DNA of 64,000 nucleotides from a virus (lineage: Duplodnaviria > Caudoviricetes): IMG/VR virus record IMGVR_UViG_3300027766_000001. One strand, 5' to 3'. Made by a program: the position numbers and the translations under genes. This document shows positions 54,539-54,690 of this stretch, piece after piece. The notes beneath the pieces are model-generated. The model made no database searches. It was not told the DNA's origin and saw nothing but the letters and a program-made list of their open reading frames with translations. Position 1 is the stretch's first letter. Each line of letters opens with the position of its first letter.

Positions 54539-54690
54539 GCTGGCACTAGCCAAACGGAAAGGCTTATACTTGGACGCTGAGTCGACGCAGTTATCAGCCA
54601 GGTATAGATTGCTCTGACAACACCATGTCATCATTAGACAATGTGATGTCATCATTATCGGGTTCGAGTCCCGGTGTGCTTCAGCTACCT
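54539..54690 (+). ncRNA. tRNA-like RNA B with canonical T-arm and expanded anticodon/variable arms
   Basis: TA-GCC-AAACGGAAA-GGC D-arm, 9-bp TATACTTGG/CCAGGTATA stem, TCGGG-TTCGAGT-CCCGG T-arm, bulged acceptor, ACCT. Confidence 0.5.

Follow-up and report, generated by a model that had tools for sequence, protein, structure and literature searches.

A tRNA-like, non-decoding RNA beside a hammerhead ribozyme in a probable jumbo-phage noncoding RNA operon

A 64,000-nucleotide stretch of jumbo phage DNA, called the window below, carries a 151-nt element on its plus strand at positions 54539–54689. We call this element RNA B, and its cloverleaf is identified from minimum-energy folding, a covariance model, and covariation. 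RNA B is not a decoding tRNA and has no anticodon loop. We are highly confident that it is a real, structured tRNA-like RNA, and it likely derives from a tRNA gene. A fuller reading, which we hold at slightly better than even confidence, is that RNA B is a tRNA-derived, L-shaped, non-decoding, class II-like optional cassette of a jumbo-phage noncoding RNA operon. Host enzymes would excise it as a stable RNA of ~150 nt, with an invariant hairpin as its working end.

RNA B lies in an ORF-free stretch of ~660 nt (54423–55083) flanked by plus-strand ORFs at 54009–54422 and 55084–55332. The order of elements within this stretch is RNA A, RNA B where present, the hammerhead, a ~200-nt RNA, and a terminator. 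A tRNA-Tyr gene is found ~1.3 kb upstream, at 53052, and scores 52.7 bits with RF00005. Among the genomes of the phage collection, the only near relatives are Erwinia phages pEa_SNUABM_48/37 (294 kb) and Salmonella phage SA002 (288 kb), and the equivalent stretch is unannotated in both. The sequence of the stretch is 68–79% identical across relatives. Searches of the neighboring proteins against Pfam and PHROGs returned nothing informative, and a scan of the region for sigma-70 promoters and terminators performed no better on the real sequence than on shuffles. A minus-strand ORF at 54374–54823 was rejected as a protein gene; it is not conserved, and the indels measure 2 and ~20 nt. Separately, we noted the sequence TATATTAC at 55036–55043, just past a terminator-like hairpin (54975–55010) and 40 nt ahead of the next gene. 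SA002 and the metagenomic relatives L004 and L053 conserve this sequence, and the pEa_SNUABM_48 version reads CTACATTAC. We take it to resemble the AT-rich early promoters of phiKZ-like phages.

Homologues were sought by exact-pattern scans of IMG/VR, JGI/ENA metagenomes, and GTDB genomes, using the apical motif, the hammerhead core, the helix III/cleavage motif, and a downstream-RNA motif as patterns, together with protein-anchored searches. The pattern scans yielded only L004 (IMG/VR contig 3300031134_000007, which L020, part of a 282-kb metagenome contig, matches exactly in this region), L019, L021, and a truncated contig, L042. L003 and most other pattern matches were chance hits in coding DNA. 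The upstream 137-aa protein failed as an anchor, being a widespread small protein. The 194-aa flanking protein, used the same way, led to L053 (IMG/VR 3300011242_000002, 273 kb, rated 100% complete) and L054, both without RNA B. The locus is thus represented by five lineages: the window; pEa_SNUABM_48 (hereafter Ea48) with pEa_SNUABM_37 (L001); SA002 (L002); L004; and L053 with L054. RNA B is present in three of the five (the window, Ea48, and L004). Covariance model R1 scores 126.7 bits on the window copy and 153–156 bits on those of Ea48 and L004, and a search with it for further copies in the window, Ea48, SA002, the L004 contig, and Klebsiella phage N1M2 was negative. No RNA B occurs anywhere in the SA002 genome or in L053/L054, where RNA A and the hammerhead are retained.

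All of the arms named in a preliminary description of this DNA were located in the sequence at the positions given there, and the cloverleaf that they form is the minimum-energy structure of the window copy in RNAfold (−47.1 kcal/mol, z = −2.06, matched by 7 of 200 shuffles). It is also the minimum-energy structure for Ea48, and the acceptor, D, and T arms are predicted for L004. The acceptor-like stem opens with an 8-nt 5′ strand, GCTGGCAC (54539–54546), which pairs with 54676–79 and 54682–85 of the 3′ strand GTGC-TT-CAGC (54676–85). In L004 this helix is perfect, with one G.U pair; the Ea48 version contains a C.A mismatch, and the window version a UU bulge. A TA linker (54547–48) leads into the D-arm, GCC/AAACGGAAA/GGC (54549–54563), which consists of a 3-bp stem, invariant in the three homologues, and a 9-nt loop in which G54556 and G54557 are the equivalents of G18 and G19. 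The T-arm, TCGGG/TTCGAGT/CCCGG, occupies 54658–74 (arm 54657–54675) with a stem of 5–6 bp, and C54665 in its loop is the C56 equivalent. With the T-stem extended to 6 bp, the acceptor/T stack measures 13–14 bp, not 12. The 3′ end is a single-stranded tail, TACC (54686–89), with a T next to it. The tail reads U-R-C-C in all three homologues (UACC, UGCC, UACC), and U54538 at position −1 is likewise kept in all three.

In place of the anticodon arm is an extended arm (54565–54606) made of a 9-bp stem, TATACTTGG (54565–73) with CCAGGTATA (54598–606), around an apical element of 24 nt (54574–54597). The preliminary description had this 9-bp stem continuing into GCTGA/TCAGC. The stem itself is borne out, but the full continuation is not: C54598 is common to both helices, so both cannot fully form, and an A-to-C change in L004 breaks GCTGA/TCAGC. 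Next comes a long variable arm (54607–54656), predicted as a hairpin in every homologue although its sequence differs between them, and ~20 nt longer in the window copy. Within the window's variable arm there is a direct repeat of ATGTCATCATTA (54625–54657), and this repeat explains the ~20-nt difference in length from Ea48 and L004. Both the 3-bp D-stem and the length of the variable arm are class II tRNA traits.

We counted base pairs over a cloverleaf that we specified ourselves, on alignment A3 of the three RNA B sequences (window, Ea48, and L004). Standard pairs fill 96.9% of pair cells, versus 30–46% when the 3′ partners are slid by 1–3 columns; Ea48 and L004 are nearly identical, and the three sequences are effectively two alleles, which differ at ~30% of positions. 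Compensatory double changes are found at 10 pairs, and given the near-identity of Ea48 and L004, this covariation is mostly one deep two-allele comparison plus small Ea48/L004 differences. Four of the 10 are in the acceptor (of its 8 pairs), four are in the 9-bp stem (of 9, between the two alleles), one is in the T-stem, where every cell is paired, and the last is the tertiary 19-56 pair of the elbow. The elbow pair is G19-C56 in the window and U19-A56 in Ea48 and L004, and the T-loop is UUCGAGU in the window and UUAGAUU in the other two. Across the three sequences, the tRNA core nucleotides U8, A14, A15/R15, G18, A21, U54, U55, and A58 are invariant. The covarying helices and invariant core nucleotides point to a tRNA origin and to a tRNA-like L shape, which RNA B almost certainly adopts, judging from sequence. 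By the same comparison, selection maintains the helices of the cloverleaf and its D-loop/T-loop elbow.

This covariation disfavors the view that RNA B is a decaying, functionless pseudogene recently diverged from a class II tRNA. That view draws on the imperfect acceptor in two of the three copies, the absence of RNA B from two lineages, and its rejection by tRNA finders. Yet at ~30% divergence, the 10 pairs that changed on both sides, the tertiary pair among them, have stayed paired, and the invariant 24-nt element is foreign to any tRNA. We consider a pseudogene very improbable.

RNA B also departs from tRNAs in ways that standard tools register. ARAGORN made no call on RNA B in the window, Ea48, or L004 in either default or intron mode, and RF00005 gave no match on 54539–54689 even at E ≤ 10. 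Where a tRNA has a 5-bp anticodon stem and a 7-nt loop, RNA B has the 9-bp covarying stem and the 24-nt element; where a tRNA has a 7-bp acceptor and N73-CCA, RNA B has 8 bp and a U-R-C-C tail. The elbow, defined by a UUCRA-type T-loop, a D-loop with G18/G19, and pairs 18-55 and 19-56, is present: the T-loop is UUCGAGU or UUAGAUU, G18 and U55 are invariant, and the 19-56 pair covaries. The earlier characterization of RNA B as an anticodon-less tRNA mimic is well supported by this combination of covarying helices, retained core nucleotides, a covarying 19-56 pair, and rejection by tRNA finders. A tmRNA was rejected as an identity, as ARAGORN's tmRNA mode was negative, the acceptor strands are only 137 nt apart, and there is no tag ORF. 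RNA B matched no known Rfam family. A Y RNA with a Ro partner was dismissed as well, with no Rfam match and no TROVE gene; Ea48, SA002, and the L004 contig lack Ro/TROVE (PF05731), for which control genomes were positive.

Could RNA B still yield a decoding tRNA if the apical insert were an intron, removed and the halves joined by an enzyme such as RtcB? The insert does sit at the anticodon-loop position, and Ea48 encodes an RtcB. Against this, there is no bulge-helix-bulge motif and no group I core, and removing the hairpin leaves a 9-bp stem without a sensible 7-nt anticodon loop. Furthermore, ARAGORN's intron mode, negative at its default threshold, gave inconsistent calls at lowered thresholds, and the 8-bp acceptor and URCC tail are non-canonical. 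An intron-containing tRNA is, in our judgment, barely credible.

The apical element is ACGCUGAGUCGACGCAGYUAUCMG. It is identical at 22 of 24 positions in the homologues while the flanking stems diverge, and its motif is unique in the window, Ea48, SA002, and L004 records. A hairpin, GCUGAG-UCGA-CGCAGY, is compatible with all three sequences, one of its pairs being G.U in the window and G-C in the others, with a likely loop of either 4 nt (UCGA) or 8 nt. The element is probably this hairpin, with the palindrome GUCGAC at its apex. We think it rather likely, at a little above our confidence in the fuller reading, that the hairpin is the functional site of RNA B. No partner for it was found. One candidate pairing, of apical GACGCAG with CUGCGUC at 54909–15 (7 nt), was discarded; it is absent in Ea48, and the site belongs to the closing stem of the downstream RNA.

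Read from the sequence, apical GUCGAC includes both strands of the neighboring hammerhead's pseudoknot (GUCG and CGAC), and as a loop palindrome with flanking purines it resembles a retroviral dimerization loop. There is a slim chance, in our estimate, that RNA B is a tRNA-shaped adaptor. Its GUCGAC loop would homodimerize or invade the hammerhead pseudoknot (GUCG:CGAC), coupling a tRNA-like body visible to RNase P, RtcB, and other tRNA enzymes to the control or re-ligation of ribozyme products. In that case, jumbo phages would be exchanging RNA B as a cassette for regulation or counter-defence.

The neighbor itself has, by sequence, the CUGANGA + GAAA core, the NUH triplet, and the three helices of a type I hammerhead. 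This pseudoknotted ribozyme spans 54695–54801 on the plus strand and is identified from its invariant core, its covarying helices, and Rfam, where Hammerhead_3 scores 30.3 bits, under the gathering score of 48.5. GUCGU (54695–99) pairs with CGAC of loop II (54716–19) to form the pseudoknot. The core is CUGAUGAG (54704–11) with GAAA (54732–35), and helix III is formed by 54736–46 with 54789–99. The cleavage triplet is GUA, then G, with the cut predicted after A54801 (G54799-U54800-A54801). Across relatives the core is invariant except for U7, which is C in Ea48, a position free to vary. Helix II covaries (GUCGC/GCGAC versus GUUGC/GCAAC in L053), as does helix III. In the window, helix I is weak, with GC/GC beside the core. 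Hammerheads are known in phage and prophage transcripts, and many are pseudoknot-stabilized (PMC3088659). RNA B and the hammerhead are separated by 5 nt in the window and in L004 and by ~40 nt in Ea48. The Ea48 spacer (L001:2752–2802) contains a second GUCGU-CAA-CUGA and looks like a partial duplication of the 5′ part of the ribozyme.

The preliminary description proposed that the folding or processing of RNA B may gate this ribozyme. In such a scheme, formation of helix I and the pseudoknot would depend on how RNA B folds or is processed, or else the 3′ strand of RNA B would span the cleavage site in an alternative pairing. The specific pairing put forward, of CTTCAGCTAC with GTAGC..TGAAG, exists in the window: its two strands are the 3′-terminal 22 nt of RNA B and the region of the cleavage site, and its energy is −14.8 kcal/mol, a value that 1% of shuffles reach. 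It does not extend to either relative, as the same region gives −6.9 kcal/mol in Ea48 (39% of shuffles) and −8.9 kcal/mol in L004 (18%). The weak helix I of the window and the presence of both pseudoknot strands in apical GUCGAC would also suit gating, though the apical loop can match the pseudoknot over only 4–5 bp. Moreover, the spacer varies from 5 to ~40 nt, and SA002 and L053/L054 have kept the hammerhead although they lack RNA B. With a pairing that is not conserved, a variable spacer, and a ribozyme that persists without RNA B, a conserved gating role is unsupported, and we regard gating as quite improbable. A regulatory effect of RNA B on the hammerhead that is specific to the window may exist.

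A tRNA or tRNA-like element is found directly 5′ of the hammerhead in 6 of 8 distinct loci, namely the five lineages and L021, and not in L019 or N1M2. This slot is occupied by RNA B in three lineages, by RNA A in SA002 and L053, and by tRNA-Leu(UAA) in L021. In this last case, a metagenome contig (~935–1077, minus strand), the tRNA-Leu(UAA) is genuine and has a CCA end; about 2–3 nt beyond it come GUCGU and a minimal type I hammerhead whose core and loop II are the same as in the window. The tRNA-Leu of L021 indicates that tRNA adjacency is a trait of this ribozyme subfamily. HDV-like theta ribozymes are also known beside phage tRNAs (PMC10879173). In N1M2 (L051, MN642089.1), we observed that ~1.1 kb after tRNA-Met (891–1998) looks non-coding, has a related hammerhead-like core at ~1500–1545 (GUCGU ... 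CUGACGAG ... CGAAAC), and ends in a similar terminator hairpin. N1M2_252, an annotated minus-strand CDS that overlaps the tRNA-Met, may be spurious.

This recurrent adjacency, along with a 54423–55083 stretch that is wholly ORF-free and 68–79% identical, would also fit RNA B being a peripheral domain of one structured RNA of ~660 nt. As such it would not be released and would serve as a folding scaffold, or as an insulator against misfolding of upstream sequence with the ribozyme. But RNA B closes by its own acceptor helix, it is cleanly deleted in two lineages with its neighbors unchanged, and no conserved long-range pairing to the other modules was found, the 7-nt match to 54909–15 being absent in Ea48. 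We view the scaffold reading as improbable.

Two other RNAs share the operon with RNA B. RNA A, also tRNA-like, is present in all five lineages (window 54430–54538, plus strand; L053:5380–5482), and in L053 it directly adjoins the hammerhead. Its 7-bp acceptor covaries, from GTCCGGA/TCCGGAC to GCTCAGA/TCTGAGC in SA002. The long arm of RNA A is capped by a conserved 7-nt loop, AACUUAC. The UUAC of this loop complements a GUAA that the nearby phage tRNA-Tyr carries in its anticodon loop; this match could be due to chance. Downstream of the ribozyme, the first 7 nt past the hammerhead cut, GCAGUGA (54802–54808), pair with UUACUGC (54907–54913) and close a domain of ~112 nt. The pairing covaries (GCAAC/GUUGC in Ea48 and SA002), suggesting that the downstream RNA probably refolds away from helix I after cleavage. 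A homologue of this ~200-nt downstream RNA was seen in the contig-end region (11709–11724) of L042 (IMG/VR 3300023280_000187), and that contig ends ~120 nt upstream.

Comparison of RNA B with its flanking 194-aa protein indicates how it is inherited. The protein groups the window with L004 (94% identity) and Ea48 with SA002 (93%), and the L053 protein is 60–70% identical to the rest. RNA B groups differently. The copies in Ea48 and L004 are nearly identical even though their flanking proteins are only 63% identical, and the copies in the window and L004 are ~30% diverged despite the 94% identical protein. In SA002 and L053/L054, RNA B is cleanly missing between unchanged neighbors. The disagreement between the two groupings marks RNA B as an exchangeable, dispensable cassette. 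From this sequence evidence, it is an accessory element exchanged between phage lineages. Since two lineages manage without it, its function is dispensable or conditional.

Accessory, cassette-exchanged elements are typical of counter-defence genes. RNA B might act as a decoy or sponge for a protein that recognizes tRNAs. This could be a tRNA-targeting nuclease or toxin of host defence, an enzyme that modifies or repairs tRNAs, or the RtcB ligase of the phage; the hairpin would stand in for a cleavable anticodon loop. The retained elbow and acceptor and the replaced anticodon loop agree with this. RtcB joins the kinds of ends that hammerheads make. An RtcB RNA ligase is encoded in Ea48 (MW879340.1 91427–92575, L024; 428 bits), and none was found in the 64-kb window, which is about one-fifth of such a genome. 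Among four complete genomes, RtcB occurs in one, the one with RNA B (Ea48), and SA002, the L053 genome, and N1M2 are without it; this is a single informative contrast, confounded by host (Erwinia versus Salmonella). Salmonella has its own rtcB. In addition, the RtcB gene is 96 kb from RNA B in Ea48, no partner was found, and searches of these phages turned up neither Ro/TROVE nor a phage CCA-adding enzyme. We therefore rate a decoy as unlikely, although this reading is compatible with the tRNA-derived cassette that we favor and does not exclude it.

For that favored cassette, the following course can be proposed. The preserved tRNA top half would let host tRNA-processing enzymes excise RNA B from a polycistronic transcript. 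RNase P would cut before G54539, trimming would take place past the U-R-C-C tail, and a stable, tRNA-shaped RNA of ~150 nt would result. Its working end, the invariant hairpin, may be a docking site for a protein or RNA. On this reading, RNA B exerts no conserved control over the hammerhead. Indirect hints of processing come from the conserved U(−1) and G(+1) and from the RCC tail, which fit the preferences of bacterial RNase P. RNase P measures a 12-bp acceptor/T stack. As the stack of RNA B is 13–14 bp rather than 12 and its tail is URCC rather than NCCA, the cleavage site, and even its status as a substrate, is uncertain. On these features, RNA B being an RNase P substrate is about an even call.

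Phage T4 offers precedents. Stable tRNA-like RNAs in phage tRNA clusters, such as T4 RNA C and RNA D, have been known for some fifty years, with no known function. Like RNA B, T4 species 1 RNA (rnaC) and species 2 RNA (rnaD) are phage-encoded, non-decoding RNAs of ~120–140 nt on the same strand as tRNA genes. rnaC is a stable RNA of 139 nt at the end of the T4 tRNA cluster, and its role is still unknown (PMC3014915). We folded it (L055:1909–2047, minus strand) and obtained −50.2 kcal/mol (z = −4.6), with a canonical T-arm and long hairpins. As in RNA B, the T-arm (CCGGG-UUCGAAU-CCCGG) is near the 3′ end and long hairpins replace the normal arms. Unlike RNA B, rnaC has no obvious D-arm or elbow pair, no adjoining hammerhead, and no detected sequence homology. 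The 13.3 bits that model R1 gives rnaC come entirely from the T-arm and do not exceed its scores on true T4 tRNAs, so the resemblance appears to be architectural rather than homologous. On that architectural basis, T4 rnaC is the closest analogue of RNA B.

Other tRNA-related RNAs share parts of this architecture. Class II tRNAs (RF00005; Leu, Ser, and Tyr) have the acceptor, U8, the 3-bp D-stem with its G18-G19 loop, the long variable arm, and the T-arm with a UUCGA loop in common with RNA B, but they have a 5-bp stem and 7-nt anticodon loop in place of its 9-bp arm and 24-nt element. The bacterial Y RNA YrlA has a tRNA-like domain, is a partner of Ro/Rsr, and is encoded with rtcBA in Salmonella. 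It resembles RNA B as a non-coding mimic of the tRNA elbow, found in enterobacteria and some phages, with a link to RNA repair. In contrast to RNA B, YrlA has its RNA ends within the Ro-binding stem, and its acceptor is closed. Ro itself occurs in jumbo phages (PMC7824862).

Some tRNA-shaped modules serve longer transcripts as cut sites. The t-elements of plant mitochondria, reportedly the subject of Forner et al. 2007, are said to be tRNA-like processing signals. MALAT1 mascRNA is likewise described as a tRNA-like processing signal (PMC8457004). Such modules sit within longer transcripts and are thought to recruit RNase P or RNase Z; in phages they act as punctuation, in alternation with hammerheads. 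RNA B is comparable in being an acceptor/T-arm mimic within a longer ORF-free stretch between plus-strand genes, flanked by RNA A and the hammerhead. It differs in having a full-size cloverleaf, an elbow, and an extra invariant hairpin. Since this far exceeds the needs of a cut site, a separate function is probable for RNA B.

RNA B is a clean new example of a non-decoding phage tRNA mimic, in which the elbow is selected and the anticodon loop has given way to an invariant hairpin. It is also one more instance of tRNA-like modules and hammerheads recurring together in phage RNA processing. Furthermore, SA002 and the complete L053 genome are natural knock-outs of RNA B. These knock-outs make the purpose of phage tRNA mimics experimentally approachable in the jumbo phages of Erwinia and Salmonella.
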